From an uncultured Polaribacter sp. (lineage in GTDB: Bacteria; Bacteroidota; Bacteroidia; Flavobacteriales; Flavobacteriaceae): 64,000 nt of DNA. Position 1 is the first letter of the stretch; each line of letters begins with the position of its first letter. Below the pieces are notes generated by a model. The model had not been told where the DNA came from. It saw only the letters and a list, made by a program, of their open reading frames with translations, and did no database searches. Where the stretch lies: positions 71,038-135,037 of the forward strand of contig NZ_CANNFF010000011.1 in the NCBI RefSeq assembly GCF_947503855.1, written 5' to 3'. Below, one piece after another: positions 16,227 to 55,051 of this stretch. The translations under genes were made by a program, and so were the position numbers.

Positions 16227-16228
16227 CT

Positions 16229-16786
16229 ATGGATTTTATATTACAACCTTGGCCTTGGTATGTTGCAGGCCCGTTAATAGCACTTGTACTATTTTTAATG
16301 TTTTATTTTGGTAAAAAATTTGGGGTTTCTACAACCTTAGAAACCTTTTGTACTTTAAGTGGGGCAAACAAATTATCAAACTATTTTAAAAATGATTTAA
16401 AAACACAAAAATGGCGCTTGTTTTTTGCAGCTGGCATCTTTTTAGGTGGTGTTATTGCTGCAAATTTTTTAACTCCAAATCAGTCTGTAAATTTAAACCC
16501 AGATACAGTACTAGAAATGGCAAGTTTAGGTTTTGCAGATGGAGGAAAAACTTTTTTACCAAAAGAAATATTTAGTTTAGAAGCACTCTTATCCGTGAAA
16601 GGTTTTTTAATTTTAATTGGTGCTGGTTTTTTAATCGGTTTTGGGTCACGTTATGCAGGTGGTTGTACTTCTGGGCACTCTATAACTGGCTTAAGTAGTT
16701 TACAAATGCCTTCTTTAATTGCTACAATTGGTTTTTTTGTAGGCGGATTAATTATGACCTGGTTTTTAATTCCTTTAATTTTTTAG
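16229..16786 (+). CDS. YeeE/YedE-family membrane protein (sulfur-compound transport family), first half
   Basis: TM-rich. Conserved [14 protein letters not shown] motif. Starts 2 nt after the waaA stop. Confidence 0.8.
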
Positions 16787-16833: not shown

Positions 16834-17247
16834 ATGAAAAATATCAAACTACTAATTTTAGGAATTTTATTCGGAATCGTCTTAAGCAAAGCAGAAATTA
16901 TATCTTGGTATAGAATTTACGAAATGTTTAAATTTCAATCTTTTCATATGTATGGCATTATTGGAAGTGCTGTTGTAATTTCATTTTTTTTAATGCAATT
17001 ATTTAAAAAAGGAATTATAAAAGATGAAGCTGGAAATAAAATTAAAATACAAGAAAAAGAAAAAGACTTTAAAAGAACTTTTTTTGGAGGAACAATTTTT
17101 GGTTTAGGGTGGGCATTATCAGGTGCTTGTGCAGCCCCATTATTTGCACTTTTAGGCTATAGTTTTTTACCAGCATTCATAGTTTTAATTGGTGCAATTT
17201 TAGGTGCATTTGTATTTGGACTAGTAAGTAAAAAGCTACTTAATTAA
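16834..17247 (+). CDS. YeeE/YedE-family membrane protein, second half
   Basis: TM-rich. GWALSGACAAPLF motif. Its stop TAA overlaps the moaA ATG (TAATG at 17245-17249). Confidence 0.75.
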   Translation: MKNIKLLILGILFGIVLSKAEIISWYRIYEMFKFQSFHMYGIIGSAVVISFFLMQLFKKGIIKDEAGNKIKIQEKEKDFKRTFFGGTIFGLGWALSGACAAPLFALLGYSFLPAFIVLIGAILGAFVFGLVSKKLLN

Positions 17248-18239
17248 TGAGTAAATTAACAGACAATTTTGGTAGACAGATAGAATATGTTCGTCTTGCT
17301 GTTACAGATCGTTGTAATTTGCGTTGCCAATATTGTATGCCTGCTCACGGAATAGAAATTTTACCTAGGCAAGAGTTACTCACCTTTAAAGAAATGTATC
17401 GTTTAATTCGTGTTTTAACAGAATTAGGCGTTAAAAAAGTACGTTTAACTGGTGGCGAACCTTTTGTTCGTAAAGATTTTGTGGGTTTTTTAGAAATGTT
17501 GTCTTACAACGATTTGTTAGATGCCATTAATATTACTACAAATGGCGCTTTAATCTCACATCACCTAGATAAAATTGAGCAACTAAAAAATGTAAAAAAC
17601 ATCAATTTAAGTATTGATAGTTTACAACGAGATAAATTTTTGAAAATAACCAGAAGAGATGTGTTTCCAGAAGTATATAAAACTTTTGAATTGCTAGAAA
17701 AAAGCAACTTAAATTTAAAGTTGAATGTAGTAGTACAGTCAGGCTTTAATACCGATGAAATTGTAGATTTTGTAAGACTCACAAAAGATAAAAATGTAGC
17801 GGTTCGTTTTATTGAAGAAATGCCTTTTAACGGAAAAGGTCAACGTGAAATGCAAGAAAATTGGACGTTTAAAAAAATCCTAGAAGAAATAAAAACCGAG
17901 TTTATAGTTGATGAAATTCAATCAGAAAAATCATCAACTTCTAGAAATTATAAAATAGAAAATCATCTAGGCACTGTAGGGATAATACCTGCATTTACAA
18001 GAACTATTTGTAATGATTGCAACCGAATTCGGATAACAAGCACAGGCACTTTTAAAAACTGTTTGTTTGATGATGGCGTTTTTAATTTGAGAGATTTTAT
18101 AAGAAATGGCGCTAGCAACAACGATTTAAAAGAGCTTTTTTTATCTTTAGTAAAAGAAAAACCAGAAAATGGTTTTATAGCAGAAGTAAATCGTAAAAAA
18201 GGCGATGTTTCTGAGAGTATGAGTACAATTGGAGGTTAG
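17247..18239 (+). CDS. moaA: GTP 3',8-cyclase (radical SAM, Moco biosynthesis)
   Basis: CNLRCQYCMP radical-SAM cluster motif. C-terminal CNDCNRIRITSTG and terminal GG. Confidence 0.93.
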   Translation: MSKLTDNFGRQIEYVRLAVTDRCNLRCQYCMPAHGIEILPRQELLTFKEMYRLIRVLTELGVKKVRLTGGEPFVRKDFVGFLEMLSYNDLLDAINITTNGALISHHLDKIEQLKNVKNINLSIDSLQRDKFLKITRRDVFPEVYKTFELLEKSNLNLKLNVVVQSGFNTDEIVDFVRLTKDKNVAVRFIEEMPFNGKGQREMQENWTFKKILEEIKTEFIVDEIQSEKSSTSRNYKIENHLGTVGIIPAFTRTICNDCNRIRITSTGTFKNCLFDDGVFNLRDFIRNGASNNDLKELFLSLVKEKPENGFIAEVNRKKGDVSESMSTIGG

Positions 18240-18284
18240 AAAAGTGTAATCGTATAAATGTTTAATTTTATAAACCAGTAGCCA

Positions 18285-19475
18285 ATGATTTCAGTAGAAG
18301 AGGCAAAAAATATCATTTTAAACGCAACTCAAAATTTTGGAGTTGAAGAAATTCCATTTATAAAATCTGTAGGTAGAATTTTAAAAGAAACTATTGTTGC
18401 AGACAGAGATTTTCCACCATTCAATAGAGTTTCTATGGATGGTATTGCGATTGATTTTAATGTTTTCCAAAACGGACAAAGAGCCTTTAAAATTCAAGCA
18501 ATTCAACCTGCAGGAAGTCCACAAATTACACTACAAAACAAAGAAAACTGTTTAGAAGTAATGACAGGTGCAGTATTGCCCAATAATACAAATGTGGTTA
18601 TTAGATATGAAGATGTAGTTATCAAAAATGGAGTTGCATCAATTCAAGTTAACGAGGTTAAAGAATTACAAAATATTCATCAAAAAGGAAAAGATAGAAA
18701 GTCTGGAGATGTTTTAATCAACAAAAATAAAGTTATTTCTGCAGCAGAAATTGGGGTGTTAGCAACCGTTGGCAAATCAAACATAAAAGTTGCAAAACTA
18801 CCCAAAGTTATAATTATTTCTACTGGAGATGAATTGGTAAAAGTTACAGCAAATCCTTTGCCACATCAAATTAGAAGATCTAATGTGTTTACTTTAGTTT
18901 CTTTATTAGAGCGATTGAATATTTCTTCAGAAACAGATCATATTACAGATGATAAACCCATTTTAAAACAAAAAATCGTAAACTATTTAAAACAATTTGA
19001 TGTGTTGCTTTTTAGTGGGGCAGTTAGCAAAGGAAAATTTGATTTTTTACCAGAAGTTTTTACAGAATTAGGGGTAGAAAAATTATTTCATAAAGTAACA
19101 CAAAGACCAGGAAAACCATTTTGGTTCGGGCAAACTGAGAATTGTAAAATTTTTGCATTTCCAGGGAATCCAAATTCAACGTTTGTAAATTGTTTAGCGT
19201 ATTTTTATCCATGGTATTACAAATCTGTTGGGGTAGAAGTGCAAGAAGAAACCGCCATTTTAAAGGAAGATGTTACTTTTAAACCGAATTTAACCTACTT
19301 TTTACAAGTACAATTAAGTGATAAATTCGGGCATTTATTAGCAACACCCATTCAGGGAAATGGTTCTGGAGATTTAGCAAGTTTGGTAAATGCAGATGCT
19401 TTTATTCAGTTGCCAAAAACAGAGAAGTCACTTTTTAGACAAGGTGATAATTTTCCAATTATAAGATATAGATAA
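18285..19475 (+). CDS. moeA: Molybdopterin molybdenumtransferase
   Basis: N-terminus ...DFPPFNRVSMDGIAI and ISTGDEL motifs typical of MoeA. Confidence 0.9.
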   Translation: MISVEEAKNIILNATQNFGVEEIPFIKSVGRILKETIVADRDFPPFNRVSMDGIAIDFNVFQNGQRAFKIQAIQPAGSPQITLQNKENCLEVMTGAVLPNNTNVVIRYEDVVIKNGVASIQVNEVKELQNIHQKGKDRKSGDVLINKNKVISAAEIGVLATVGKSNIKVAKLPKVIIISTGDELVKVTANPLPHQIRRSNVFTLVSLLERLNISSETDHITDDKPILKQKIVNYLKQFDVLLFSGAVSKGKFDFLPEVFTELGVEKLFHKVTQRPGKPFWFGQTENCKIFAFPGNPNSTFVNCLAYFYPWYYKSVGVEVQEETAILKEDVTFKPNLTYFLQVQLSDKFGHLLATPIQGNGSGDLASLVNADAFIQLPKTEKSLFRQGDNFPIIRYR

Positions 19476-19948
19476 TGAGCAATTTTACCCACATCAACAA
19501 AAAAGGAAACCCTAAAATGGTAAATGTTTCTGACAAGAAAATTACCAAAAGAACTGCTATGGCAAAAGCAACTATGTTTTTAGGAAAAGAGGTTATTTCT
19601 AATTTTACAAATAATGAATTAAACACCAAAAAGGGGCCCGTTTTTCAAACAGCAATTATAGCAGGAATACAAGGTGTTAAAAAAACTTCTGAGCTAATTC
19701 CTATGTGTCATCCTTTGTTAATTAATGGTGTAGATATTACCATAAATATTGCAGATGATGAATGTATAGAGGTGTTTTGTAAAGTGACTATTGAAGGGAA
19801 AACAGGAGTAGAAATGGAAGCTTTAACAGGCGTAAATATCACCTGTTTAACTATTTATGATATGTGTAAAAGTATCAGTCAACAAATGGTGTTTAAAGAA
19901 GTAAAATTGATAGAGAAAACAGGAGGAAAATCGGATATAAAGAATTAA
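19475..19948 (+). CDS. moaC: Cyclic pyranopterin monophosphate synthase
   Basis: LIPMCHPL and GVEMEALTGV motifs. ATG overlaps the moeA stop (TAATG). Confidence 0.92.
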   Translation: MSNFTHINKKGNPKMVNVSDKKITKRTAMAKATMFLGKEVISNFTNNELNTKKGPVFQTAIIAGIQGVKKTSELIPMCHPLLINGVDITINIADDECIEVFCKVTIEGKTGVEMEALTGVNITCLTIYDMCKSISQQMVFKEVKLIEKTGGKSDIKN

Positions 19949-20001
19949 AATGTCTCCTCGAGCCCAGTCGCTAGATTAAAAGAAAAAACTGCAACACAAA
20001 A

Positions 20002-21108
20002 ATGGAAAACCACAAAAAACATACAAATTTAAAAAGAAGAGATAATGATAACTTTGCACCTAACGAAATTGCAATTTTAGGAACAAATTGTACTACAATT
20101 TCTAATTTAGTAATTAAAGTTTCACAAAAATTATCCAATTTTAAATTAGCTTATTTTGATGCTTCTCATGTAAAAGATGTTGAAAAAAATATATTATCTG
20201 AATATACTTTTCACCACAAAGGAAATGTACAAATAACCACTTCTGGAAAGCTAAATAAATACCAACAACGTTTAGATTTTGCACAATTTGATTCTGTGTT
20301 TATCAATGGAAACCATTACCAAGCAGCAAAACAAATTCTAGTTTTAGATGAAGCAAAAGAAGCTTCTGTGTTAAAAAGATTAGAGCAATTAGATTGTATA
20401 CAGTTTATTGTAAAACTGAAAAAAGAAACTGAGTTTTTCGATTTTTTAGTTGAAAAATATCCAAACATAAAAAACAAGATTTGTTATACCATTGATCAAG
20501 TTGATCAAATAGCACATCATATTCATAATTTGATTCAAGAAAAAATTGCCCCCATAAAAGGTTTGGTTTTGGTAGGTGGAAAAAGCACCAGAATGGGACA
20601 AGATAAATCTGAACTTGATTATTTTGGAAAACCTCAAAAAGAAGTTGCTAAAGAATTATTGGAAAACAACAATTTAAAAACGTTTTATTCTGTTGAAAAA
20701 GCCACAAATAATGTAAATGAAATTTCAGATAAATTCTACAATTTAGGTCCATTTGGTGGCATTTGTTCTGCGTTTCAGAAAGATCCAAATTCGGCTTGGT
20801 TTGTTTTGGCAACAGATTTACCTTTTGTAAATAATAAAGTAATAGAGTTCTTATTAAACCATAGAAATCCAAGTAAAGTTGCCACGGCAATTAAAGGAAA
20901 AACTAAGCAATTTGTAGAGCCATTAATTACAATTTACGAACCAAAAGCGTATCCTATTTTATTGCAATATTTAGCACAAGGCTATTCATGTGCGCGTAAA
21001 ATGCTTATCAATTCTGATGTAGAAATCGTAGAAATTGATGATGGTTTGATTAGAAATGTAAATACACCTGAAGAGTTTGAAATGGCTATAAAAGAGATTG
21101 TAAAGTAA
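20002..21108 (+). CDS. mobA: Molybdenum cofactor guanylyltransferase (MobA) with N-terminal MobB-like domain lacking a Walker A motif
   Basis: C-terminal half GLVLVGGKSTRMGQDKSEL is the MobA NTP-transferase signature. N-terminal ~185 aa align by eye to MobB (IAILGTNCTTISNLV where MobB has GxxGSGKT). Confidence 0.8.
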   Translation: MENHKKHTNLKRRDNDNFAPNEIAILGTNCTTISNLVIKVSQKLSNFKLAYFDASHVKDVEKNILSEYTFHHKGNVQITTSGKLNKYQQRLDFAQFDSVFINGNHYQAAKQILVLDEAKEASVLKRLEQLDCIQFIVKLKKETEFFDFLVEKYPNIKNKICYTIDQVDQIAHHIHNLIQEKIAPIKGLVLVGGKSTRMGQDKSELDYFGKPQKEVAKELLENNNLKTFYSVEKATNNVNEISDKFYNLGPFGGICSAFQKDPNSAWFVLATDLPFVNNKVIEFLLNHRNPSKVATAIKGKTKQFVEPLITIYEPKAYPILLQYLAQGYSCARKMLINSDVEIVEIDDGLIRNVNTPEEFEMAIKEIVK

Positions 21109-22208
21109 TGAACAAAAACCAACTTTTCAAACGTCAAATTACTTTATCAGAGATAGGCGAAATTGGACAAGAAAAATTACAAAATGCATCAGTTTTAGTA
21201 GTTGGTTGTGGTGGTTTGGGCAGTCTTATTGCAGTGTATTTGGCTTCGAGCGGAATTGGAAAACTACATTTGGTAGATTTTGATACAGTAGATATTACCA
21301 ATTTGCATAGGCAGGTTTTTTATACTTTAGAAGATGTTGGCAAACCAAAAGCAGCAATTTTACGAACGTTTATAGAACAAAGAGCACCTTTTACTGAAGT
21401 TAGTTTTACCAATAAACCAGTTACAAAAGAAAATGTTTTCGAATTGATTGAAAATGTAGATATTGTAGTAGATGGAACAGATTCTTTGCCCACAAAATAT
21501 TTATTAAACGATGCTTGTGTTCTCAAAAACAAACCTTTGGTATATGGCTCTTTGTATAAGTTTGATGGTTATGTAGCAACTTTTAATGTGTTGCAAAAAG
21601 ATGAAAGTTATTCAGCAAATTTAAGAGATGCTTTTCCAGAAATGGCAACAGAAATTCCTAATTGTGAAGAAGCAGGAACACTAAACTCTATTGTAGGTTT
21701 GATTGCTATACAACAAGTAAATGAGGTTTTAAAACTGGTTACAAAAACAGGAAAACCTTTAACAAATGAGTTGTTAATTTATAATTCGCTACAAAATACA
21801 CAGTTAAAAATAAAGTTAAAACCAAGTGTTTTAGAAGCTAACATTGCCAAGATTTTTAACATGCAAACCTATGTTGATGCTTTATGCGTAGGTCAAAATC
21901 CTGATTTGCAAATATCATCACAAGAATTAAAAGAACAACTATCTATTCAATCAGCATCTAAAAACTTAGAAATTATTGCAGTTTTAAATAATTTAGATGT
22001 GCCTTTTAAGGTTGATAAAACCATACATATTAATGATTTTGATGCAGAAAAGATAGCGGTAGATTTTAATAAAACTTATGTAATGATTTGTCAAAGAGGG
22101 CTTAACAGTTACAAAGCTACAGAAAGGCTAAAAAAGAAATATCCAGATTTAAAAGTACTAAATTTAACGGGTGGAATTTCTACATACAAAACACAAGTAA
22201 GCTCATGA
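21108..22208 (+). CDS. moeB: Molybdopterin-synthase adenylyltransferase (ThiF/MoeB/HesA family) with C-terminal rhodanese-like domain
   Basis: VLVVGCGGLGS dinucleotide fold, PNCEEAGTL, C-terminal YVMICQRGLNSYKA rhodanese-type Cys loop. ATG overlaps the mobA stop. Confidence 0.88.
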   Translation: MNKNQLFKRQITLSEIGEIGQEKLQNASVLVVGCGGLGSLIAVYLASSGIGKLHLVDFDTVDITNLHRQVFYTLEDVGKPKAAILRTFIEQRAPFTEVSFTNKPVTKENVFELIENVDIVVDGTDSLPTKYLLNDACVLKNKPLVYGSLYKFDGYVATFNVLQKDESYSANLRDAFPEMATEIPNCEEAGTLNSIVGLIAIQQVNEVLKLVTKTGKPLTNELLIYNSLQNTQLKIKLKPSVLEANIAKIFNMQTYVDALCVGQNPDLQISSQELKEQLSIQSASKNLEIIAVLNNLDVPFKVDKTIHINDFDAEKIAVDFNKTYVMICQRGLNSYKATERLKKKYPDLKVLNLTGGISTYKTQVSS

Positions 22209-23974
22209 AAAACCCTTTAAAATTTTACTCAAAAAGACTAAAAAAACTAGAAGAAAAAGCAGCCGATTTAAAAAAGAAGTCTGTAAACTTAAGTATTTTT
22301 AGGTTTGCTGTGTTTTTAGGAACTTGCTTTTTAGTTTACCTAACTTTTGGGACTTATCCAGATGTTTTTATCATTGCTTTTTTAGGAGTTGTCTTGTTTG
22401 CTTTTTTGGTTGTTAAACATCTAGATTTAAAAAGGAAACAAAATATAGTCTCTAAAAAAATAGATATAAATACTACAGAAATTAAAGTTTTACATCGAGA
22501 GTTTTATCACTTAAAAACAGGTAAAGAATTTATAAATTCTAGACATTTTTACAGCAATGATATAGATTTGTTTGGTGTAGGTTCTTTTTTTCAATATCTA
22601 AATAGAACCGTAACAAAAGATGGTAAAAAAGAGTTGGCAACTCTTTTAACAGCAAATAAAACCGATGAAATTTTAGCCAAACAAGAAGTTGTAAAAGAGC
22701 TATCAAAAAAAACAAAATGGAGGCAACATTTTAATGCCATAACTAGTTTGGTAACTGTAAAAAATACTTCTAATTTTATTACAAATTGGATTGTAAATTA
22801 CAAACAAACATTACCCAATGTTTTAAACATTTTCACAAAAGTGTTTTCTGTTATTTCTGTATTGTTGATTGGTTTGGTTTCTGTTGGTTTTCTATCTTTC
22901 AATTATATGCTTGCCTGGTTTTTCTTTGGCTTGTTTATAACCGGAATATTTTTAAAAAAGACTAGTAAATTATATGCAGAAACAGATAAAGTTAGAGAAA
23001 CATTTAAACAATATTACGAATTGTTAAATGAGATCGAAAACGAAGAATTTACCTCAGAAATTCTTCTACAAAAGCAAAAAATTATTACATCAGAACATAA
23101 AAATGCCTCTACAATTTTTAAAAAATTTGCTAGAATTTTAGATGCTTTTGACCAGAGAAATAACATTATAATTGCTGTTTTTGGCAATGGCTTATTCTTA
23201 TCTGAAATTGCGAACGCACACAAAGTAGAAAAGTGGATTGCAACTTATAAACATACTGTAAAAAAATGGTTTGAAGTAGTTGCTTTTTTTGATACACAAA
23301 ACGCATTAGCTAATTTTCATTTTAATCATCCAAAATTTATTTTTCCAGAGATAACTACACAAAAACAAATTATAAAAGCTACCAATTTAGGGCATCCATT
23401 ATTGAATGCAAAAAAAAGAATAGACAATAATTTTACAATTGATAAAGCACAATTTTTTATTGTTACAGGAGCAAATATGGCTGGTAAAAGCACGTTTTTA
23501 AGAACAGTTTCCCTATCAATAGTAATGGCAAATTGTGGCTTGCCAGTTTGTGCTTCAAGTTTTAAATATCATCCTATAAAACTAATTACAAGTATGAGAA
23601 CTACAGATTCTTTAACAGAAGATGAGAGTTATTTTTACTCGGAGTTAAAACGATTAAAGTTTATTGTTGATGAAATTGCACAAGAAGATTACTTTATCAT
23701 TTTAGACGAAATTTTAAAAGGAACCAATAGCAAAGACAAGGCAATTGGCTCTAAAAAATTTGTAGAAAAACTAACAAAATCAAAATCTACAGGAATTATT
23801 GCAACACACGATGTAAGTTTATGCGAATTAGAAAATGAGTTTTCTAGCATAGAAAACTATTATTTTGATGCAGAAATTACAAACAATGAATTACATTTTG
23901 ATTACACTCTAAAAAGCGGTGTTTGTAAAAATATGAATGCTTCTTTTTTATTGAAGAAAATGGAGATTGTTTAG
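22205..23974 (+). CDS. Membrane-anchored MutS-family ATPase (domain V only; no mismatch-binding or Smr domain)
   Basis: Two pairs of hydrophobic segments in the N-terminal 250 aa. Walker A TGANMAGKSTFLRTV, Walker B FIILDEILKGTN, then ATHD. ATG overlaps the moeB TGA (ATGA at 22205-22208). Confidence 0.8.
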   Translation: MKNPLKFYSKRLKKLEEKAADLKKKSVNLSIFRFAVFLGTCFLVYLTFGTYPDVFIIAFLGVVLFAFLVVKHLDLKRKQNIVSKKIDINTTEIKVLHREFYHLKTGKEFINSRHFYSNDIDLFGVGSFFQYLNRTVTKDGKKELATLLTANKTDEILAKQEVVKELSKKTKWRQHFNAITSLVTVKNTSNFITNWIVNYKQTLPNVLNIFTKVFSVISVLLIGLVSVGFLSFNYMLAWFFFGLFITGIFLKKTSKLYAETDKVRETFKQYYELLNEIENEEFTSEILLQKQKIITSEHKNASTIFKKFARILDAFDQRNNIIIAVFGNGLFLSEIANAHKVEKWIATYKHTVKKWFEVVAFFDTQNALANFHFNHPKFIFPEITTQKQIIKATNLGHPLLNAKKRIDNNFTIDKAQFFIVTGANMAGKSTFLRTVSLSIVMANCGLPVCASSFKYHPIKLITSMRTTDSLTEDESYFYSELKRLKFIVDEIAQEDYFIILDEILKGTNSKDKAIGSKKFVEKLTKSKSTGIIATHDVSLCELENEFSSIENYYFDAEITNNELHFDYTLKSGVCKNMNASFLLKKMEIV

Positions 23975-29723: not shown

Positions 29724-29758
29724 AAAAACCCAAAACTTATAAGTTTTGGGTTTTTTTT
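29724..29758. terminator. Bidirectional intrinsic terminator
   Basis: AAAAACCCAAAACTTA/TAAGTTTTGGGTTTTT perfect palindrome with flanking A- and T-runs. Confidence 0.8.
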
Positions 29759-29776: not shown

Positions 29777-30835
29777 TTATTTTTTCTCTTTAATGAGATA
29801 CATATATACAGGAAAATGATCTGAGTAACCCCCTGTATAACCTCCTTTAGAAAAGCTTCTAAAAGGATAGCCTTTGTATCTACCTTTTTTCTGAGTTAAA
29901 AAACGTTTATTAAAAATGTTTGCTTGATACATTTTATAAGTAGTATAATCTTTTGTTCTTTTGTTTAGTAAAGGGGCAGAAATTAAAATCATATCAAAGA
30001 GGTTTAAATTATCTCTGTAAGCTAATGTGTTAAAGCCTCTTCTATGTAAGTCTTCATAAGGGTTGTAAATATCGTTTTCATTTACATCTCTTTTTCTACT
30101 TTTGGTTTTTAAAACTTTTTTAAAACTAGAGTTTATAGGATCATCATTAAAATCGCCCATAGTTAAAATCTTAGCATTGGGGTCTTTTTGTCTAATTTTT
30201 TCTATAATTTTTGTGTTTTGGTAAGCCGCTTTTTCACGCAAAGGTCTACTTTTTGCTTCACCACCACTTCTAGAGGGCCAGTGGTTGACTATTAAATGAA
30301 TTAACTCGTCATCTAAATACCCAGAGACTAATAGTTGATCTCTAGTATAAACTTTGTAACCATCTCTATAAATATTTGGGTTAAAAGCTTCGTGATACAC
30401 AGGTTTAAAATATTTTTTTTGATATAATAAAGCTACATCAATACCTCTTTTATCAGACGAATTATAATGTATAATACCATAATGCTGTTTTGTCAAATGT
30501 TTAGATTTCACTAAATCTTCTAAAACACTTAAGTTTTCCACTTCAGAAACCCCAATTATTGCAGGACTCGTTTTTGCTTTATCCAGTCCAATTTGAGCAA
30601 TGGTACTTCCTAGTTTATCTATCTTATCCCAATAGACTTTTGATCTGTTGGTTTTTAGCTTCATTATTGGGCTTGCTCCATCATTGATAGAGGTATCATT
30701 TATAGTGTCAAAAAGATTTTCTAAATTGTAAAAAGCAATAGTTCTAATTGTGTATTTTTTTTCTTTTTTCTGAGAAAAAAATACTGTATTTGTAGAAATT
30801 AGAAATACAATAAGTAGGGTTACTTTTCTTTTCAT
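29777..30835 (-). CDS. Secreted endonuclease/exonuclease/phosphatase (EEP) family protein, probable extracellular nuclease
   Basis: Signal peptide MKRKVTLLIVFLISTNTVFFSQ from the ATG at 30835; the ORF track starts 10 codons earlier at 30865. EEP strand motifs AFYNLENLFD, GVSEVEN, MGDFND and GYSDHFPV. Confidence 0.8.
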   Translation of the reverse strand: MKRKVTLLIVFLISTNTVFFSQKKEKKYTIRTIAFYNLENLFDTINDTSINDGASPIMKLKTNRSKVYWDKIDKLGSTIAQIGLDKAKTSPAIIGVSEVENLSVLEDLVKSKHLTKQHYGIIHYNSSDKRGIDVALLYQKKYFKPVYHEAFNPNIYRDGYKVYTRDQLLVSGYLDDELIHLIVNHWPSRSGGEAKSRPLREKAAYQNTKIIEKIRQKDPNAKILTMGDFNDDPINSSFKKVLKTKSRKRDVNENDIYNPYEDLHRRGFNTLAYRDNLNLFDMILISAPLLNKRTKDYTTYKMYQANIFNKRFLTQKKGRYKGYPFRSFSKGGYTGGYSDHFPVYMYLIKEKK

Positions 30836-30954
30836 TTGTGCTTTTTCTTTCTGTAAAAATATCAAACATAATTTATAATTTACTAATAAAATAGGTTTAT
30901 TGTTGAAAATAACCTAAATTTAAATGCTAAATTGAATGAAAAAAAGAGAAAGTT

Positions 30955-33705
30955 ATGGTAAAATTTATTTTATCTACAATTTTTGTGATGCTATTTTTTA
31001 TAGAAACAAATGCACAAAATATTGTAAAAGGTATTGTTATAGATAACAATACAGAAAACCCCTTAGTTAACGTTCTCATACACGTTAAAAATACAATTAT
31101 CAACAAAAAAACGCAACTAAATGGTGTTTTTATTATTGATAAACTTCCCAATGGAAAGTATCTTTTAGAGATTTCTATTAATGGTTACGAAACTCAAGTT
31201 TTTCCAATTCAACTTAATGGAAAACCAATTAATTTAGGTACAATTTATCTTTTTAAAGATATTACAGAAGACCAAGACTTAAGTATTATAACCATTACAG
31301 ATGATGAGTTAAATGACGATGCAAGTGCTGCAGATAACATATCGGGTTTATTACAAGCAACAAAAGATGTCTTTTTAAGGTCTGCTGCGTTCGAGTTTAG
31401 TTCTTCTTTTTTTAGAATTAAAGGGCTAGATTCTGGAAATGGTAAAGTACTTATTAACGGAATTGAAATGAACAAAATTTATGATGGAAGAGCACAATGG
31501 AGTAATTGGGGTGGTTTAAATGATGTTTTACGAAACCAAGAATTTAGTAATGGATTAGCACCTTCTAACTACACTTTTGGCGGTGTTTTAGGTTCTACTA
31601 ACATTAATACTAGAGCTTCTCAACAAAGACCAGGAACCAGAATTTCATATTCATCATCTAACAGAAGTTATGTGCATAGGTTAATGGCAACCCACTCTAC
31701 AGGTGTTTTAGAAGGAGATTGGGCAATAACAGTTTCTGGAAGTAGAAGAGCAGGCTTAGAAGGTTTTAACGAAGGTACTTCCTACAATGCATACTCATTA
31801 TTTTCATCCGTAGAAAAAAAGATTAACGAAAACCATAGTATAAACTTTACATCTATTTTTACACCAAACAGAAGAGGTAAATCTTCTCCAAATACCCAAG
31901 AAGTATTTGATTTAAAAGGAATAGCTTATAATGATTATTGGGGCTATTTAAATGGAAGAAAGGTAAACTCTAGAATAAAAGAGGTAAAAGAGCCAATTTT
32001 AATGTTAAACCATTATTGGGATTTATCTGATAATAGCACATTGCAAACTAATATATCTTATCAATTTGGTAAAATAGGTAACAGTCGTTTAGATTTTAAT
32101 GGTGGTGCAAACCCAAGCCCAACTTATTATCAATATTTACCAAGTTTTCAACTTAGAAATGAGGATTTAGCAGGAGCTTACACATCAAGAGAAAATTTTC
32201 AAGAAGATGGTCAATTAGATTGGAATAGAATTTTTGATGCAAACATTACAAATGCAAATGCAGGTATAGAAAATGCTTATGTACTTTATGAAGATAGAAG
32301 TGATGATAAGCAATTAACAGTAAACACTATTTTTAACTCAGACATTACAAACAACATTACTTTAAGTGGTAAATTAGAATACAGAAGATTACGTTCTAAT
32401 AGTTTTGCAGAAGTTATAGATTTATTAGGTGGTAAAGGTTATTTAGATATCAACCCTTTTGCAGATACAGAAATCCAACAACAAAATGATATCTTAAATC
32501 CTAATAGAGTTGTTGGAGAAAGAGATGCTTTTAGATACAACTACAATTTAAATTCAAATATGGCAAGTGCTTTTTTACAAGCACAATTTAAGTATAAAAA
32601 AGTAGATTTTTTTACCGCATTTAGTGTTTCCAATACTACACATCAAAGAGAAGGTTTATACCAAAATGGTAGATTTGAAAATAATTCTTTAGGAAAATCT
32701 AAAAAATTAGACTTTATAAACTTTGGTGCAAAAGCAGGTGCAACTTATAAAATTACAGGACGCCATTTAATAGATGCAAATGTAGCTTATGTAACCAATG
32801 CACCTACAATTAGAAACTCTTTTGCAAATTCTAGAGAAAATAATTTTGTGGTAGATGATTTGGTTAGCGAAAAAGTATTTTCATCAGATATAAGTTATAT
32901 TGTTAGAAGCCCAATAATTACCTCTAGATTAACTGGTTACTATACCAATGTACAAGATGCAACAGAAATATCTTTTTATTTTGCAGATGGTATTGGTGGC
33001 GATAATACAGCTTTTGTACAAGAAATACTTTCTGGTATCAACAAACAACACATAGGTTTAGAACTAGGTATAGAGGCGCAAGTTACACCAACTATAAAGT
33101 TAAAAGGTGCAGCAGCTATTGGGCAACATACTTACAGCAATAATCCAGATTTATATTTAACATCAGATGTAGCTAATAATGGTGGTTTTGATGCAGACTT
33201 TAGATCTAAAGATTATGTGTCAAATTTAAAAAACTACAAATTGGCTTCTGGTCCACAAAATGCTTATTCTGTTGGTTTCGAGTACAGAGATCCAGATTAT
33301 TGGTGGGTTGGTGCTACCACAAATTTCTTTTCAAATATTTATGTTGATGTTGCTCCATTAAATAGGTCTTCAAACTTTTTTGAAGACGCAGATGGTTTAC
33401 CATTTGCAGATTACGATCCAGATTTAGCAAGAGAATTATTGCAACAAGAAAAATTTGACGATTATACGGTTGTAAATTTAATTGGTGGTAAATCATGGAA
33501 AATAGGCGATAAATATATTAGTCTATTTGCAACAGTAAATAACTTATTAGGAGAAGAGTACAAGTCTGGTGGTTTTGAACAAGGTAGAAATGCCAACTTT
33601 AGACAATTAAGAGACGACAAAGCACTAGATACACCCGTTTTTGGTAATAAATATTGGTACGGAAGAGGTACAACCTACTTTTTAAATTTAAATATATCAT
33701 TCTAA
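30955..33705 (+). CDS. TonB-dependent receptor with carboxypeptidase-regulatory-like N-domain (no SusD partner)
   Basis: Signal peptide. NGKYLLEISINGYETQ CarbopepD_reg-like. Plug region. ~700-aa barrel ending LNLNISF. Confidence 0.88.
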   Translation: MVKFILSTIFVMLFFIETNAQNIVKGIVIDNNTENPLVNVLIHVKNTIINKKTQLNGVFIIDKLPNGKYLLEISINGYETQVFPIQLNGKPINLGTIYLFKDITEDQDLSIITITDDELNDDASAADNISGLLQATKDVFLRSAAFEFSSSFFRIKGLDSGNGKVLINGIEMNKIYDGRAQWSNWGGLNDVLRNQEFSNGLAPSNYTFGGVLGSTNINTRASQQRPGTRISYSSSNRSYVHRLMATHSTGVLEGDWAITVSGSRRAGLEGFNEGTSYNAYSLFSSVEKKINENHSINFTSIFTPNRRGKSSPNTQEVFDLKGIAYNDYWGYLNGRKVNSRIKEVKEPILMLNHYWDLSDNSTLQTNISYQFGKIGNSRLDFNGGANPSPTYYQYLPSFQLRNEDLAGAYTSRENFQEDGQLDWNRIFDANITNANAGIENAYVLYEDRSDDKQLTVNTIFNSDITNNITLSGKLEYRRLRSNSFAEVIDLLGGKGYLDINPFADTEIQQQNDILNPNRVVGERDAFRYNYNLNSNMASAFLQAQFKYKKVDFFTAFSVSNTTHQREGLYQNGRFENNSLGKSKKLDFINFGAKAGATYKITGRHLIDANVAYVTNAPTIRNSFANSRENNFVVDDLVSEKVFSSDISYIVRSPIITSRLTGYYTNVQDATEISFYFADGIGGDNTAFVQEILSGINKQHIGLELGIEAQVTPTIKLKGAAAIGQHTYSNNPDLYLTSDVANNGGFDADFRSKDYVSNLKNYKLASGPQNAYSVGFEYRDPDYWWVGATTNFFSNIYVDVAPLNRSSNFFEDADGLPFADYDPDLARELLQQEKFDDYTVVNLIGGKSWKIGDKYISLFATVNNLLGEEYKSGGFEQGRNANFRQLRDDKALDTPVFGNKYWYGRGTTYFLNLNISF

Positions 33706-33720
33706 AAAAAAATAATTAAA

Positions 33721-35145
33721 ATGAAAACAAATAAAATAATCATCATATTACTAGCCTTTGTATCTAGCATTTCTTTTACCTCTTGTGTAGAAGATGGATA
33801 CTTTACAGTACCCCAAAATTTAGGAGTAGAAGAAAATGAAAATTTAAATGCACTTTTAGATAGCATAAATCAAGGTTTCGTAGAATTAAAGTCTATAAAA
33901 GATTTAAAAAAAATCTATATTTCTGGTAGTAACCCTATAGAAATAGTGTCTAATATCGCTGTAAAAGGATATGTTATTTCTTCAGATGAAAATGGTAATT
34001 TCTTTAGAGAATTTTATATACAAGACCAACCAGAAAACCCAACTTCTGGAATTAAAGTAGCTATAAATTTAACTAATATTAATACCAAATTTAATTTTGG
34101 AAGGGAAGTTTATGTAAGATTAAAAGGTTTATATATTGGAGAAACAAATTCTGGTGATGGTGTAACTACAATTGGGGGTAAAGTAAAATTAGTAGATAAT
34201 AGAGAGATAGATAATATTACTGTAAATAAATCTTTAAATCAATTTTTTAGATCAAAAACTATAGCTGAAATTATTCCTAAAATTGTAACCCTAGGAGATA
34301 TAAACAATCCAGAAAATCTTTGTACCTATGTTAGTGTAGAAAATGCTTATTTTGCTGGAAATACAGAAGGTAAGACATATATAGATCCTACAGAAGATTT
34401 TGATACCAAAAGAACTATAGAAACTTGCCAAGGTCCTGGCATTGTAGAGGCTTTTGTAGAAACAAGTTCTTTTGCAGACTTTGCTAATTTAGCGTTACCA
34501 AAAGGAGGAGGTTTTTTAAATGCGGTTGTTTCTAAAGATTTTCCTGGAGATTTTACAGTACTAGTTTTAAATTCAGCAGATGGTGTAAATATGAACGGAA
34601 CAAAGTGTACTCCTGAATCACTATCAGATTTTTCAACAATTTTATTAAATGAAAATTTTGAGACAACTTCTGGAGATATAAATATTGCTGGTTGGACAAA
34701 TTACAGTGAAAAAGGCACTAAACTTTGGCGTTCTTATTTTGATAATGATGTACAAAGTAGAGCTGCAAATATTGGTTCTTTTAGATCTGGAAATGCTTCA
34801 ACAATATCGTGGTTAATTACAAAAGGTATAGATTTAGATACAACATCAGAAGAATATTTTTCTTTTGATACTTCTACATCTTTTGCAGATAGTAGTACTT
34901 TAGAGGTTTTAATATCATCTAACTGGGATGGTTTAGAAACAACAATTACGAGTGCTAATTGGGAAAAACTACCTGCAAGAATAGCATCAAATAGTGATGA
35001 CTTTAGAACTTTTATTAACTCAACTTACATTAATTTATCAAATTATACAGGTACAGTTTACATCGCATTTAAATATATAGGGAGTGGAGATGAAGATTTT
35101 GATGGAACTTATGAGATAGATAATGTAGTAATTAACGCAAAATAA
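33721..35145 (+). CDS. Surface lipoprotein: N-terminal YhcR/ExeM-like OB-fold (DUF5689-like) plus C-terminal choice-of-anchor-J-like domain
   Basis: Lipobox SFTSC. VKGYVISSDENGNFFREFYIQDQPENPTSGIKVAI...GREVYVRLKGLYIGE resembles the OB-fold preceding the EEP domain in extracellular nucleases. C-terminal LLNENFE...WTNY...WLITKGIDL...YEIDNVVI. Starts 15 nt after the TBDR stop. Confidence 0.65.
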   Translation: MKTNKIIIILLAFVSSISFTSCVEDGYFTVPQNLGVEENENLNALLDSINQGFVELKSIKDLKKIYISGSNPIEIVSNIAVKGYVISSDENGNFFREFYIQDQPENPTSGIKVAINLTNINTKFNFGREVYVRLKGLYIGETNSGDGVTTIGGKVKLVDNREIDNITVNKSLNQFFRSKTIAEIIPKIVTLGDINNPENLCTYVSVENAYFAGNTEGKTYIDPTEDFDTKRTIETCQGPGIVEAFVETSSFADFANLALPKGGGFLNAVVSKDFPGDFTVLVLNSADGVNMNGTKCTPESLSDFSTILLNENFETTSGDINIAGWTNYSEKGTKLWRSYFDNDVQSRAANIGSFRSGNASTISWLITKGIDLDTTSEEYFSFDTSTSFADSSTLEVLISSNWDGLETTITSANWEKLPARIASNSDDFRTFINSTYINLSNYTGTVYIAFKYIGSGDEDFDGTYEIDNVVINAK

Positions 35146-35154: not shown

Positions 35155-35188
35155 AAAACCAGTAAAGATTTTTCTTTACTGGTTTTTT
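35155..35188 (+). terminator. Intrinsic terminator
   Basis: CCAGTAAAGA-tttt-TCTTTACTGG followed by TTTTTT. Confidence 0.8.
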
Positions 35189-45457: not shown

Positions 45458-48400
45458 TTATCTAATTTCTAAATTTTCTAAACTTTTAGAACCTTTTATC
45501 CACATCTTTAATTGTGTAATTAAGTAGAATAAAATTGGTACTACAACCAATGTTAAAAAAGTTGCTACAAATAAACCATAAATAACTGTCCAGGCTAAAG
45601 GACCCCAGAAAATTACATTATCTCCACCCATATAAATGTTAGCATCAAACTCATTAAACAATGTAAAGAAGTTGATGTTTAAGCCAATTGCTAACGGAAT
45701 TAACCCTAAAATAGTAGTAATTGCTGTTAATAATACCGGACGTAAACGAGCCTTTCCTGCTTTTACCACAGCTTCAAAAAGATATTCTTTAGGTAAATAC
45801 GCTGTATCTTCTAAATCTAGTTCTTCCTTTTTTCTGTCGATTAATAATTGGGTGTAATCAAGTAGAACAACTCCGTTATTTACTACAATTCCTGCAAGCG
45901 AAATTATCCCCATCATGGTCATCATAATAACAAAAGAACTCCCTGTAATTACAATACCTCCAAAAACACCAATAAAGCTTAAGAAAATAGCAATCATAAT
46001 AATGGCAGGTTTAGAAACTGAGTTAAACTGAAAAATCAAAATAAAGAAAATTAACGCCAAACCTTTAAAGAAAGCACCCATTAAGAAGGCTTGTTGTTTG
46101 TTTTGTTCTTCTATTTGACCTGTATAATCAATACGAATGCTGGCTGGTTTTTCAGTAAAGTTTTTCATTTCTTCTTTAATCTGATTTACCACAGCTGCAG
46201 CATCTACATAACCAGGAGCTAATTGAGAATATACTGTAACAACACGTTTGGTGTCTTTGTGTTTTATCGCACTAAAACCAGAACTATTAGATTGTTTTGC
46301 AATTGCAGAAATAGGAACTGCTTTTACTTGCCCAGTATTGTCTCTAAACGTAATTGTTTGGTTAAATAATGCACTTTTGTTATATCTAATATCTTCATTA
46401 AAACGAACGTTGATGTCGTAATCATCTCCATCTTCTTTATAAATTCCCGCTTTTGCTCCAAAAATAGAGTTTCTTAATTGTTGGCCAACTTGTCCTGTGG
46501 CTACCCCTAATTCACCCGCTTTTTTTCGATCAACTTCTACTTTCATAGAAGGTTTGTCTTTGTTTACATCTATCTTTAGCTCATCAACACCAGGAACGTT
46601 TTTAGAGTTTACAAAAGCACGCATTTTTTCTGCAGTGGCTATTAATTCTTCATAATCTTTTCCTTCTAATTCGATATTTATAGGCGCTCCAGCAGGTGGT
46701 CCATTCGCATCTTTTTCAACAGAAATTAAGACTCCTGGGTAAATTCCTGTTAGGGCTTCTTGTACTTTTTGACGTAATTTTTCACTATCTAAACCACGTC
46801 TGTATTTATACTGACGCATAGAGGCTGTAATTTTACCTTTATGTGGCATTTCTGCAGCAGAACCACCATCTGTTTGCGGATTTCCAGCACCTTCACCCAC
46901 TTGAGAAACAGCACTTTCTACCATGAAGTTTTTACCATTATCCATATACATCTCTTGGTTTAAGATGCCATACACACGTTGCTCAATTTCTTTGGTAATT
47001 TTATTGGTTTCGTCAATATCTGTTCCTTGTGGATATTCGATATATACCACAACTTGATTGGGTTTGTTGTCTGGGAAAAACTCTATTTTTGTTCTTTGTG
47101 ATGCAACAGATGCACCAAAGCCTCCAAAAGCTGCAAATAATAAGATAAAAGTACCTACTGTAATTGCAATTGGTTTCCATCCACTTAAAGCCGCTTTTAA
47201 TGTTTTTTCATAAGTGTTTTCTAACCAAACCAATGTGTTTTTTTGAAAATAATTAGCGGCTTTTCTTAAGAATAATCTGTACACCCACAACATAATTGCA
47301 GTAAATACCATAACAGAGCCTAAACCTCTATACTCGCCTCCTACTAGTAAAATTACAATACCAAACAACCCTACAATTGCAGAAATGGTAATGATTCTTT
47401 TGATGGGCATATCTTTATCTTCGGTGGTCATAAACTGAGAAACCAAAACAGAATTAAAGAAAATAGCCACTACTAAAGAAGAACCTAAAACTACAGATAA
47501 TGTAATTGGGAAATAAATCATAAACTGCCCAAAAAGCCCAGGCCATAAACCTAAAGGTACAAAGGCTGCAACTGTAGTTACAGTAGAAATTATAATAGGA
47601 AACGCAATTTCTCCAATCCCTTTTTTGGCTGCTTCGATTCTAGATAAACCTTCTTCATCCATTAAGCGATATACGTTTTCTACCACTACAATTCCGTTAT
47701 CAACCAACATTCCAAGTCCCATAATTAGTCCAAACAGAATCATGGTATTTAGGGTATAACCAATGGCGCCTAAAATCATTAAAGACATAAACATAGACAT
47801 TGGAATAGCAAAACCAACAAATAGGGCGTTTTTAAATCCTAAAAAGAACATTAAAACAGTAACTACTAAGATAATTCCGAAAATAATATTGTTCACCAAA
47901 TCATCTACTTGACCAATGGTTTTGTCAGATAAATCGTTGGTAATGCTTACTTCTAAATTCTTTGGAAAATACTCGTCTTTGGCTTTATCGACAATGATTT
48001 TTATTTCATCTGCAGCAGCAACCATGTTTTTTCCAGCACGTTTTTTTACATCTAACATAACCACTAGTTTACCATCTTTTCTAGCAAATGTGGTTTTGTC
48101 TTTTTCTTTAAAACTTATGGTTGCAACATCTTTTAAGTAGATAGAATTCCCTTTTTCAGACTTAATTACAAAGTTTTTTAAGTCTGATGGTTTTTCGATT
48201 TCTCCTAAAATTCTTATGGTTCTTCTTTGCCCACTTGCAATTAAATTACCAGCAGAAGAGGTAATGTTTCCATTCTGGATAGCACCTACAATATCGTTAA
48301 AGCTTACTTGCATAGCCATCATTTTATAAATGTCTACAGCCACTTCAACCTCTCTGTCTTGCACACCTCTTATGTCTGCTTGTTTTACTTCATTTAAATC

Positions 48401-48940
48401 TTCAATTTCATCTTGTAAATATTCTGCAAACTCTTTTAGTTTTTGCAGTGGATAATCACCAGAAATATTAATATTTAAAAAAGGAATCTCTTCTGACATA
48501 CTTAAATCAAAAGCATTTGGGTCTACTTTTGCACCATTAAACGTAGGCCAATCTTCAGATGCTTTTTCGGTATCTAATTTGTCTTTTACCCGTTGTTTGG
48601 CAACTTCTACATCCATGTCATCATCAAATTCTACAATAATCATAGAATAATCTTCTTGAGAAGTTGAGGTAATTTCTACAACACCACTCAACCCTTTTAA
48701 TTGGTCTTCTAGCGGATCTGTAATTAGTTTTTCTATATCTTCTGCAGTGTTTCCAGGATAGAGAGTGCTAATGTATATTTTGGTTTCTTTAATCTCAGGG
48801 AAATCTTCTCGAGGCATACTAAAATATGCAGAAATACCTAAAATTAGAATCAAGAAAATAGCAACATACATCGTGGTTTTATTTGATATGGCCCACGAGG
48901 ATAGTTTAAATTCCTTGTCAGTTTTTTTGATTTTAGTCAT
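45458..48940 (-). CDS. RND efflux transporter permease (AcrB/HAE family)
   Basis: 1160 aa, 12-TM / two large periplasmic loop layout. AcrB-like N-terminus SSWAISNKTTMYVAIFLILILG. Confidence 0.93.
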   Translation of the reverse strand: MTKIKKTDKEFKLSSWAISNKTTMYVAIFLILILGISAYFSMPREDFPEIKETKIYISTLYPGNTAEDIEKLITDPLEDQLKGLSGVVEITSTSQEDYSMIIVEFDDDMDVEVAKQRVKDKLDTEKASEDWPTFNGAKVDPNAFDLSMSEEIPFLNINISGDYPLQKLKEFAEYLQDEIEDLNEVKQADIRGVQDREVEVAVDIYKMMAMQVSFNDIVGAIQNGNITSSAGNLIASGQRRTIRILGEIEKPSDLKNFVIKSEKGNSIYLKDVATISFKEKDKTTFARKDGKLVVMLDVKKRAGKNMVAAADEIKIIVDKAKDEYFPKNLEVSITNDLSDKTIGQVDDLVNNIIFGIILVVTVLMFFLGFKNALFVGFAIPMSMFMSLMILGAIGYTLNTMILFGLIMGLGMLVDNGIVVVENVYRLMDEEGLSRIEAAKKGIGEIAFPIIISTVTTVAAFVPLGLWPGLFGQFMIYFPITLSVVLGSSLVVAIFFNSVLVSQFMTTEDKDMPIKRIITISAIVGLFGIVILLVGGEYRGLGSVMVFTAIMLWVYRLFLRKAANYFQKNTLVWLENTYEKTLKAALSGWKPIAITVGTFILLFAAFGGFGASVASQRTKIEFFPDNKPNQVVVYIEYPQGTDIDETNKITKEIEQRVYGILNQEMYMDNGKNFMVESAVSQVGEGAGNPQTDGGSAAEMPHKGKITASMRQYKYRRGLDSEKLRQKVQEALTGIYPGVLISVEKDANGPPAGAPINIELEGKDYEELIATAEKMRAFVNSKNVPGVDELKIDVNKDKPSMKVEVDRKKAGELGVATGQVGQQLRNSIFGAKAGIYKEDGDDYDINVRFNEDIRYNKSALFNQTITFRDNTGQVKAVPISAIAKQSNSSGFSAIKHKDTKRVVTVYSQLAPGYVDAAAVVNQIKEEMKNFTEKPASIRIDYTGQIEEQNKQQAFLMGAFFKGLALIFFILIFQFNSVSKPAIIMIAIFLSFIGVFGGIVITGSSFVIMMTMMGIISLAGIVVNNGVVLLDYTQLLIDRKKEELDLEDTAYLPKEYLFEAVVKAGKARLRPVLLTAITTILGLIPLAIGLNINFFTLFNEFDANIYMGGDNVIFWGPLAWTVIYGLFVATFLTLVVVPILFYLITQLKMWIKGSKSLENLEIR

Positions 48941-48960
48941 TAGTCTGTGGTCTTTAGACG

Positions 48961-49332: not shown

Positions 49333-49357
49333 AATTCTACAATCTACAGTCTAAAAA

Positions 49358-50524: not shown

Positions 50525-50532
50525 GATTTTTT

Positions 50533-51867: not shown

Positions 51868-51871
51868 TTGG

Positions 51872-52474: not shown

Positions 52475-52550
52475 AAGTAAAGACGCAAATCTACAAAAGG
52501 AAACTTTAGAAACAAAAAAAGTTTCCAAAGTTTTAAATATTTTTTAACAT

Positions 52551-55020: not shown

Positions 55021-55051
55021 GAATTGCTAATTTTTAAAGATAAAATAAAAA

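Follow-up and report, generated by a model that had tools for sequence, protein, structure and literature searches.

A Polaribacter locus homologous to the DNA-uptake systems of Riemerella and Bacteroides: gene layout, conservation and candidate functions

Described DNA-uptake systems and the Polaribacter locus

Two experimentally studied loci stand closest to the three genes considered here, which lie at positions 29777 to 35145 of a 64,000-nucleotide stretch of an uncultured Polaribacter sp. (contig NZ_CANNFF010000011.1; hereafter the window, with a G+C content of ~30%) and encode an EEP nuclease, an outer-membrane barrel protein and a lipoprotein. The first was found in Riemerella anatipestifer, where a transposon screen followed by targeted work identified two genes as essential for natural transformation (Huang et al., 2021; PMC8459023): RA0C_RS04915, whose product is an outer-membrane barrel bearing a CarboxypepD_reg domain, and RA0C_RS04920, encoding a protein with DUF5689 and DUF5017/choice-of-anchor J domains. 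The two genes are co-transcribed, as evidenced by a polar transposon effect, and in the model put forward in that study double-stranded DNA (dsDNA) is bound by the lipoprotein and then moved across the outer membrane by the barrel (PMC8459023). The locus (NC_017045:1014432..1020133) adjoins a ddbB homolog (PMC12478041), and deletion of tonBA or tonBB reduces transformation in Riemerella (PMC8383284).

The second locus, ddbABCDEF of Bacteroides thetaiotaomicron, is needed for the depletion of exogenous DNA and for the production of uracil and xanthine, and its deletion abolishes DNA depletion (Sharan et al., 2025; PMC12478041). Three of its products, DdbA, DdbB and DdbF, degrade DNA in vitro; DdbB was assigned to the periplasm, and DdbA and DdbF are lipoprotein surface nucleases. 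The TonB-dependent transporter of the system is DdbC. DdbD carries DUF5689, and its AlphaFold model is similar to the HIN domain of p202, which binds dsDNA; AlphaFold3 predicts a SusCD-like pairing of DdbC with DdbD (PMC12478041).

Polaribacter homologs of both Riemerella outer-membrane components have already been tabulated, the lipoprotein with 28.8% identity (98% cover) and the barrel with 35.1% identity (99% cover), and it has been suggested that the genera with tabulated homologs use a similar DNA-uptake system (PMC8459023, Table 4 and supplement). The system is already known, with these two components on record since 2021, and an earlier interpretation of the locus made from the letters alone (the sequence-only reading) was mistaken in stating that no TonB-dependent receptor system of this kind had been described experimentally, since descriptions were published in 2021 (PMC8459023) and 2025 (PMC12478041). 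Its central proposal, that of a nucleic-acid capture and import locus built on a barrel of the TonB-dependent type, is supported by homology to the ddb/RA0C_RS04910-20 system; the link to Riemerella is based on homolog tables in the literature, on DdbC sequences from a bioRxiv supplement and on the family model NF052645. Because all three proteins are homologous to Ddb proteins, the trio can be assigned to the published system, and we consider it likely that it is orthologous to the core ddbB-ddbC-ddbD(E) locus (RA0C_RS04910-04915-04920) and would capture extracellular dsDNA and import it into the periplasm.

Gene order, intergenic region and conservation

The ddbB-like EEP nuclease gene (PF19580) is located on the minus strand at 29777..30835 and encodes 352 amino acids from an ATG at 30835; its full open reading frame (ORF), TTG-extended reading included, covers 29777..30865. 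The ATG is the preferred start because the orthologous N-termini all open with a signal peptide there and a -7 box lies just upstream. This box (TATGTTTG), of the Bacteroidota type TAnnTTTG, is found on the minus strand and ends 27 nt before the EEP ATG, within the TTG-extended reading. A divergent promoter spacer of 119 bp (30836..30954) separates the start codons of the EEP and barrel genes. The ddbC-like barrel gene (30955..33705, plus strand; 916 amino acids), recognized by DdbC homology and a Plug domain, is followed after 15 nt by the gene for the surface lipoprotein (33721..35145, plus strand; 474 amino acids), with DUF5689 and choice-of-anchor J domains. Spacer, barrel length and intergenic gap were all as given in the sequence-only reading. 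Two terminator-like hairpins flank the trio on both sides: one (29724..29755; a 14-pair stem and a T-run) has an RNase E/G-like gene on one side and the EEP 3′ end on the other, and one (35155..35186, plus strand), 10 nt past the lipoprotein stop codon, ends the two-gene barrel-lipoprotein unit. In orthologous loci the spacer between start codons measures 115-186 bp (median 137), and several of these spacers have -7 boxes facing both ways. An Rfam search of the Polaribacter spacer matched no RNA element.

With a length of 5.37 kb, the trio has the same three-gene layout as the Riemerella locus (5.70 kb). It also resembles the Bacteroides ddb locus, in which a gene for DdbB (PF19580, with an SPI-type signal peptide) is divergent from ddbC, followed in turn by the gene for the DdbD lipoprotein with its export signal.

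Conservation was assessed in 80 Flavobacteriaceae loci retrieved via the lipoprotein (39-72% identity) from Polaribacter, Tenacibaculum, Bizionia, Winogradskyella, Kordia, Lacinutrix, Psychroserpens, Pontimicrobium and other genera. The barrel gene lies directly upstream of the lipoprotein gene in 77 of them, the remaining three ending at a contig edge, and the EEP gene is upstream and divergent in 74, with five more ending at a contig edge. The trio is therefore syntenic in 74 of the 75 informative loci, in agreement with the linkage assumed by the sequence-only reading. The one locus truly without an EEP gene (L049) has a 932-amino-acid regulator-like ORF in its place (1248-4046), while another (L050) has two small ORFs of 233 and 240 amino acids between the EEP gene and the barrel gene (1973-3974). 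Outside Polaribacter the flanking genes are wholly different and the trio is kept; it is also present, in unrelated contexts, in three more distant loci, from Aequorivita, from Neptunitalea, and one that encodes a 729-amino-acid double-DUF5689 lipoprotein. An arrangement so conserved is far beyond chance. The lipoprotein family comprises 3674 representative clusters at E<=1e-3, and stepping-stone searches for relatives reached Aequorivita, Mesonia and Ulvibacter and no Weeksellaceae. In the Neptunitalea locus (L083) TonB_C and BlaR-like genes come after the trio, which is perhaps a coincidence or a hint of TonB linkage.

Marine Flavobacteriaceae play a major part in the consumption of organic matter from blooms. 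Given a near-universal syntenic trio in this group, TonB-dependent DNA import could matter for the turnover of dissolved DNA and for gene flow in the ocean.

The surface lipoprotein

The lipoprotein has a lipobox (..FTS-C22) followed by V-E-D, and every ortholog inspected keeps both a lipobox and an export signal, reading C-V-(E/Q)-D-(D/G)-D at this position. As this sequence fits the export rule reported for surface lipoproteins, C(x/xx)(D/E)(D/E) (PMC12478041), the protein should be exposed at the cell surface. DUF5689 spans residues 56-287 (E 1.5e-54). It is followed by choice-of-anchor J (residues 308-471, E 6e-18), as predicted for the C-terminal half by the sequence-only reading, and a choice-of-anchor-J/DUF5017 beta-sandwich takes up residues about 305-474. 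The motif pair VKGYVISSDENGNFFREFYIQD...GREVYVRLKGLYIGE, quoted in that reading for the N-terminal half, is present. The fusion of DUF5689 with DUF5017/choice-of-anchor J is shared with Riemerella. Family model NF052645 (“M949_1556 family lipoprotein”) aligns with residues 6-471 of 474 over model positions 7-456 of 457 (E 4e-52), at a score of 177.5 bits, under the curated cutoff of 475. Judging from this score, the lipoprotein is homologous to the Riemerella/Weeksellaceae subfamily NF052645 but falls outside it, so that the Polaribacter and Riemerella proteins belong to different subfamilies.

A full-length structural model was poor across the DUF5689 half (pLDDT 67). Modelling residues 24-300 from an alignment of 61 sequences instead gave a pLDDT of 93 and a pTM of 0.90, with two beta-barrel units. 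The top PDB matches of this second model in Foldseek were the HIN domains of p202, p204, IFI16 and AIM2, several of them solved with dsDNA, followed by OB folds of MCM, aspartyl- and lysyl-tRNA synthetases, BRCA2 and MCM10. Although the Foldseek probability was up to 0.99, the HIN match is modest (E 4e-4, TM 0.33/0.42) and speaks for fold class, not for binding. The modelling supports a tandem OB fold of HIN-like type for the DUF5689 region (residues about 56-300), and the p202 HIN resemblance of Bacteroides DdbD is thus reproduced for Polaribacter. HIN-200 domains consist of two tandem OB folds and bind to the backbone of dsDNA whatever its sequence. They are the closest structural matches to the DUF5689 model, but at 8-13% identity, TM 0.3-0.4 and a root-mean-square deviation of about 8 Å there is no detectable sequence homology, and HIN-200 proteins are, unlike DUF5689 lipoproteins, eukaryotic cytosolic immune sensors; the likeness is one of fold class, not of membership. 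The first OB unit (OB1) of the lipoprotein is basic (pI 9.1) and the remainder acidic (pI about 4.1-4.4). The C-terminal domain resembles the beta-sandwiches of MAM domains, ephrin receptors, gingipain adhesins and carbohydrate-binding modules, and a sequence search of the PDB with the lipoprotein returned no match.

The sequence-only reading had compared the N-terminal half with the OB fold that precedes the nuclease domain of YhcR (Bacillus) and ExeM (Shewanella), and saw modules fused in those enzymes as split across the present locus. At the level of fold class an OB assignment holds, as a tandem OB suggested by the model and the fold search, but a specific link to YhcR/ExeM is not supported: Pfam at E<=1 matched DUF5689 alone in the N-terminal half and no OB family, and a nuclease domain fused to DUF5689 was found in none of ten long relatives. 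The “split module” origin was rejected, as there is no sequence evidence for it. YhcR and the ExeM/NucH nucleases (Shewanella, Aeromonas), which combine OB and/or lamin-tail domains with a nuclease of the EEP superfamily or a related type, are likewise nucleic-acid-directed envelope proteins; they differ from the Polaribacter transporter locus in being single secreted enzymes. The ten long relatives carry 2-5 copies of DUF5689, some of them with lamin-tail domains as in ExeM/NucH-type nucleases. Among these multi-copy proteins, P0147, P0211, P0162 and P0243 are arrays of 3-5 DUF5689 copies of up to 1386 amino acids, two of them with lamin-tail domains.

Relation of the lipoprotein to DdbD and DdbE

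Two Bacteroides loci were found by a DdbC search and contig retrieval. One (L084) encodes an identical DdbC followed by a 277-amino-acid DUF5689 protein (DdbD). The other (L085), whose DdbC has 91% identity to the published protein and which is therefore not from the same strain, shows the full six-gene layout: DdbA (BACON and Endonuclease_NS domains), DdbB (PF19580, 341 amino acids, divergent from ddbC), DdbC (barrel, 846 amino acids), DdbD (DUF5689, 278 amino acids), DdbE (DUF6359 and CBM_4_9, 530 amino acids) and DdbF (Endonuclease_NS). Compared with this layout, the Polaribacter locus has no DdbA, DdbF or separate DdbE.

The lipoprotein aligns pairwise with DdbD over its N-terminal 137 residues, comprising the signal peptide and the first OB fold (E 2e-7), and its C-terminal domain aligns with DdbE residues 202-357 (27% identity, E 4e-11), a relation that tblastn recovered in 66 of 84 subjects. 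On the NF052645 model DdbD covers positions 4-274 of 457, and DdbE residues 187-354 cover positions 293-455 and exceed the choice-of-anchor-J cutoff. From these alignments, the Flavobacteriaceae/Riemerella lipoprotein is equivalent to a DdbD with the DdbE core joined to its C-terminus; in Bacteroides the two are encoded by adjacent genes (L085, 10571-13020). Module shuffling would thus have the opposite sense to the one supposed by the sequence-only reading, with parts that are separate in Bacteroides fused in Polaribacter. The fusion suggests that DdbD and DdbE, the latter of unknown function, act together, and offers a simple argument for DdbE working with DdbD; the relation is not stated in the main text of PMC12478041. 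Further genes of the L085 contig are one for a phosphate-selective porin (Porin_O_P) and a CYTH-domain gene (2611-4144), 3-5 kb upstream of ddbA, which may be a coincidence or a hint of a phosphate connection, and a TonB_C-domain gene downstream of ddb (15536-16504), which may likewise be fortuitous or hint at TonB linkage.

The outer-membrane barrel

The barrel protein is composed, in order, of an SPI-type signal peptide, a CarboxypepD_reg extension (residues 24-90), a Plug domain (residues 106-183), a putative, divergent barrel and a C-terminal Phe. Plug (PF07715) was matched at 28.6 bits against a cutoff of 23.9, and all 17 orthologs considered match it too. BLASTP aligned the protein with the Bt2 DdbC (33% identity over 938 columns, E 1e-147) and with the Bt1 DdbC, WP_008762511.1 (31% identity over 835 columns, E 3e-113). 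The CarboxypepD_reg extension is shared with the Riemerella barrel and with the Bt2 DdbC, whereas the Bt1 DdbC lacks it. A candidate TonB box, LSIITITDDEL, is located at residues about 109-119; it is strand-like and conserved, and its counterpart in the Bt1 DdbC alignment is SFTFTESQL, close to the N-terminus of the mature protein. In and next to this motif, D117, E118, L119 and D122 are invariant among orthologs. Size, C-terminal Phe and the annotation of DdbC in the literature are consistent with a beta-barrel. No homology was detected between the barrel region of this protein and that of a canonical TonB-dependent receptor encoded in the same window.

The receptor had been described earlier as lacking a SusD partner. 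This was confirmed, as an NCBIfam search of the barrel returned no SusC/RagA model and the next gene encodes a DUF5689 protein, not a SusD-like one. The locus nevertheless recalls SusCD loci, in which a TonB-dependent barrel gene is followed by that of a surface lipoprotein presenting the polymer and a periplasmic hydrolase is co-encoded. It differs from them in having no SusD-like (TPR) protein and no SusC/RagA signature, in a barrel that is missed by the Pfam barrel models, in a binding partner of predicted tandem OB fold and in an enzyme that is a nuclease.

The EEP nuclease and the site of hydrolysis

The presence of a signal-peptide EEP protein with the motifs AFYNLENLFD, MGDFND and SDHFPV, reported by the sequence-only reading, was confirmed. 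In Pfam the protein is matched by PF19580 (Exo_endo_phos_3), which spans residues 32-349 of 352 (E 3e-103). PF03372, the family named in that reading, scored slightly under its cutoff (22.6 against 24.5 bits); otherwise the domains guessed there for the trio proved right. The catalytic His/Asp/Glu set is retained: residues N37, E98/E100, H185, D228, N230, D281, D339 and H340 are invariant across 17 orthologs, giving a DNase-I-type set (Asn/Glu, His, Asp-x-Asn, Asp, Asp-His) that was assigned largely by motif. Hhalign of the EEP profile with bovine DNase I, whose sequence was checked against 1dnk_A, placed H185 on H134 and GDFN on GDFN; at a probability of 6% this alignment is too weak and was discarded as proof of kinship. 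PDB sequence searches with the protein and its profile gave no match. With the DdbB-type protein of L085 the Polaribacter EEP protein shares 42% identity over its full length (351 columns, E 8e-92) and the same SPI-type signal ending in S|Q. By this likeness to DdbB, it is placed in a family with demonstrated DNase activity.

The sequence-only reading had envisaged a secreted nuclease acting locally at the cell surface, with lipoprotein-bound DNA or RNA being cut outside the cell and oligonucleotides imported, mainly for the scavenging of phosphorus (P) or nitrogen (N). We regard this as unlikely. The signal peptide is of the SPI type, as in every ortholog inspected, with cleavage at about FFS|Q21 and no lipobox Cys, and since PF19580 fills residues 32-349 of 352 no C-terminal domain of the type IX secretion system is possible. 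With a pI of 9.7 and a net charge of +22, the mature form is very basic. These features are of the DdbB type rather than of the DdbA/DdbF type, and the nuclease is probably periplasmic, as its homolog DdbB is, which makes hydrolysis more likely after import than before it. In Bacteroides the ddb system does work partly at the surface, through DdbA and DdbF. A surface nuclease of this type (Endonuclease_NS) was, however, matched by tblastn neither in the window nor in 83 related loci, and a Flavobacteriaceae form without surface nucleases points to import before hydrolysis. DdbA and DdbF are confined to the Bt1 six-gene form of Bacteroides, and as the Riemerella-type core is also without them, their lack marks a subtype and does not exclude the locus from the family. 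In Phocaeicola, the Pv2 loci without a secreted nuclease give minimal DNA depletion (PMC12478041), a further point against hydrolysis at the surface.

P limitation is frequent for marine Flavobacteriaceae, which would suit such scavenging, but no Pho-related element was identified when the spacer was inspected. Another argument in its favour comes from Flavobacterium johnsoniae, in which Fjoh_3841, an “orphan” TonB-dependent transporter with pf13620 only, is induced by phosphate starvation (PMC8115612); it is a candidate relative of the Polaribacter barrel. It is possible that the Fjoh_3840/3841 pair is related to the Polaribacter barrel-lipoprotein pair, given the similarly sparse Pfam signature, although the sizes do not match (about 120 kDa for Fjoh_3841 against about 103 kDa for the Polaribacter barrel). 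Fjoh_3840 itself is described as an uncharacterised 40.5-kDa neighbour of Fjoh_3841, and both are strongly induced by phosphate depletion (PMC8115612).

Proposed mechanism and biological role

Taken as a ddb-type importer, the Polaribacter locus may operate as follows. The barrel and lipoprotein genes would be co-transcribed, as their arrangement indicates here and the polar transposon effect indicates in Riemerella. The lipoprotein is expected, from its motif, to receive its lipid anchor at C22 and, by virtue of C-V-E-D, to reach the surface, where the HIN-like tandem-OB DUF5689 region, with its basic OB1, may bind DNA nonspecifically, a role suggested by its in silico fold. It would be seated on the DdbC-type barrel as SusD is on SusC, in line with the AlphaFold3 prediction for DdbCD in the literature. 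TonB energy would then displace the plug and admit DNA or large fragments into the periplasm, as the tonB deletions in Riemerella suggest, and the very basic, SPI-exported EEP nuclease, whose homolog is an active DNase, would cut the DNA at its presumed periplasmic location. The products could pass to ComEC for recombination, that is natural transformation, as in Riemerella, or to phosphatases and nucleoside transporters for nutrition, as in B. thetaiotaomicron.

In this respect, scavenging of P, N or nucleotides, the use favoured by the sequence-only reading, is one of two documented uses, and the layout of the locus is closer to the transformation-type locus of Riemerella. A fused lipoprotein, the N-terminal extension of the barrel and the absence of a locus-encoded surface nuclease together define a Riemerella-type layout, and for this reason the import of long DNA is somewhat likelier than the uptake of pre-digested oligonucleotides. 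A more far-reaching proposal, which we put forward tentatively and hold to be doubtful, is that the minimal, nuclease-poor form with a fused lipoprotein, which nearly all of the sampled Flavobacteriaceae genomes conserve, is a competence-type importer of long DNA, and that abundant marine flavobacteria associated with blooms, such as Polaribacter, are naturally transformable, with a TonB-dependent barrel in the place of a type IV pilus. If so, DdbD and the DdbE core, being fused, would be parts of a single DNA-capture lid.

The same importer may instead serve nutrition, with complete breakdown of the DNA in the periplasm to yield phosphate, nucleosides or nucleobases, in cells that are not transformable; this is a plausible option, to which we give a little less than an even chance. 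In Bacteroides the role shown is indeed DNA depletion and nucleobase production, for which ddbABCDEF is needed, and not transformation (PMC12478041). The family is near-universal in Flavobacteriaceae, as reflected in its thousands of representative clusters, most of whose members have never been seen to be competent, and the periplasmic nuclease is always co-encoded. The layout of the Riemerella transformation type speaks against a purely nutritional role, as does the observation that DNA is a poor sole nutrient even for B. thetaiotaomicron. Genes for nucleotide scavenging were sought in the 64-kb window and none was found. The two roles are not mutually exclusive, and a nutritional one is just as possible for Polaribacter as transformation.

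Several points weigh against the assignment of the locus to DNA capture and import. The barrel was matched neither by PF00593 nor by any other Pfam barrel model, and a PDB sequence search and hhalign gave nothing past its N-terminal extension. The HIN resemblance of the lipoprotein, as noted, is modest. Identity to the Riemerella proteins is low in the published table (~29% for the lipoprotein and ~35% for the barrel), and whereas comEC and recA are found a few genes from the Riemerella locus, they are not in the Polaribacter window; comEC, dprA and comF were sought there and none was found, and no report of competence in Polaribacter was found in the literature. Genetic studies have so far been confined to R. 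anatipestifer and B. thetaiotaomicron, and in the latter species DNA is a poor sole source of carbon, N or P (PMC12478041).

A last point concerns M949_1556, the namesake of NF052645, whose mutant in R. anatipestifer CH3 lost its reactivity with an anti-lipopolysaccharide antibody and was attenuated. This phenotype in lipopolysaccharide, antigenicity and virulence is unexplained by a DNA model, and would fit a substrate other than DNA, such as a lipopolysaccharide-related glycan, RNA or polyphosphate, with the nuclease association being secondary. The resemblance of the C-terminal domain to carbohydrate-binding and adhesin beta-sandwiches points in the same direction, and EEP enzymes are able to act on RNA and other phosphoesters. 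Such a substrate is nonetheless very improbable, given the DNA phenotypes in two distant species, the strict co-conservation of a DNase-family gene, a HIN-like fold of the dsDNA-binding type and an invariant DNase-I-type catalytic set.

Other features of the window

A second TonB-dependent receptor (4765-7473; 902 amino acids) combines CarboxypepD_reg and Plug domains with a canonical PF00593 barrel. The ORF after it (7587-8762; 391 amino acids) has no Pfam match, and the two form another receptor-partner pair of the non-SusD kind. Just upstream of this receptor, on the minus strand, lies a gene for a PHO4-family phosphate transporter (2254-4500), which at 748 amino acids is unusually long and has two matched stretches. 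The beginning of the window (10-2199, plus strand) encodes a patatin-like phospholipase fused to an Omp85-superfamily barrel (729 amino acids).

Upstream of the trio, a molybdenum-cofactor cluster (17247-22208, plus strand), comprising a MoaA-like radical SAM protein, MoeA, MobA-like and ThiF/MoeB-like proteins, is followed by a gene for a MutS-domain-V protein (22205-23974). Downstream, an RND efflux operon on the minus strand (45458-52528) encodes an outer-membrane factor, a membrane-fusion protein and an AcrB-type pump of 1160 amino acids, with an adjoining TetR-family regulator. Finally, we identified a cluster for uronate/5-keto-4-deoxyuronate utilisation at 54193-61956, which includes a short-chain dehydrogenase, UxuA, KduI, a DUF4861 protein and the TRAP components DctP and DctM.

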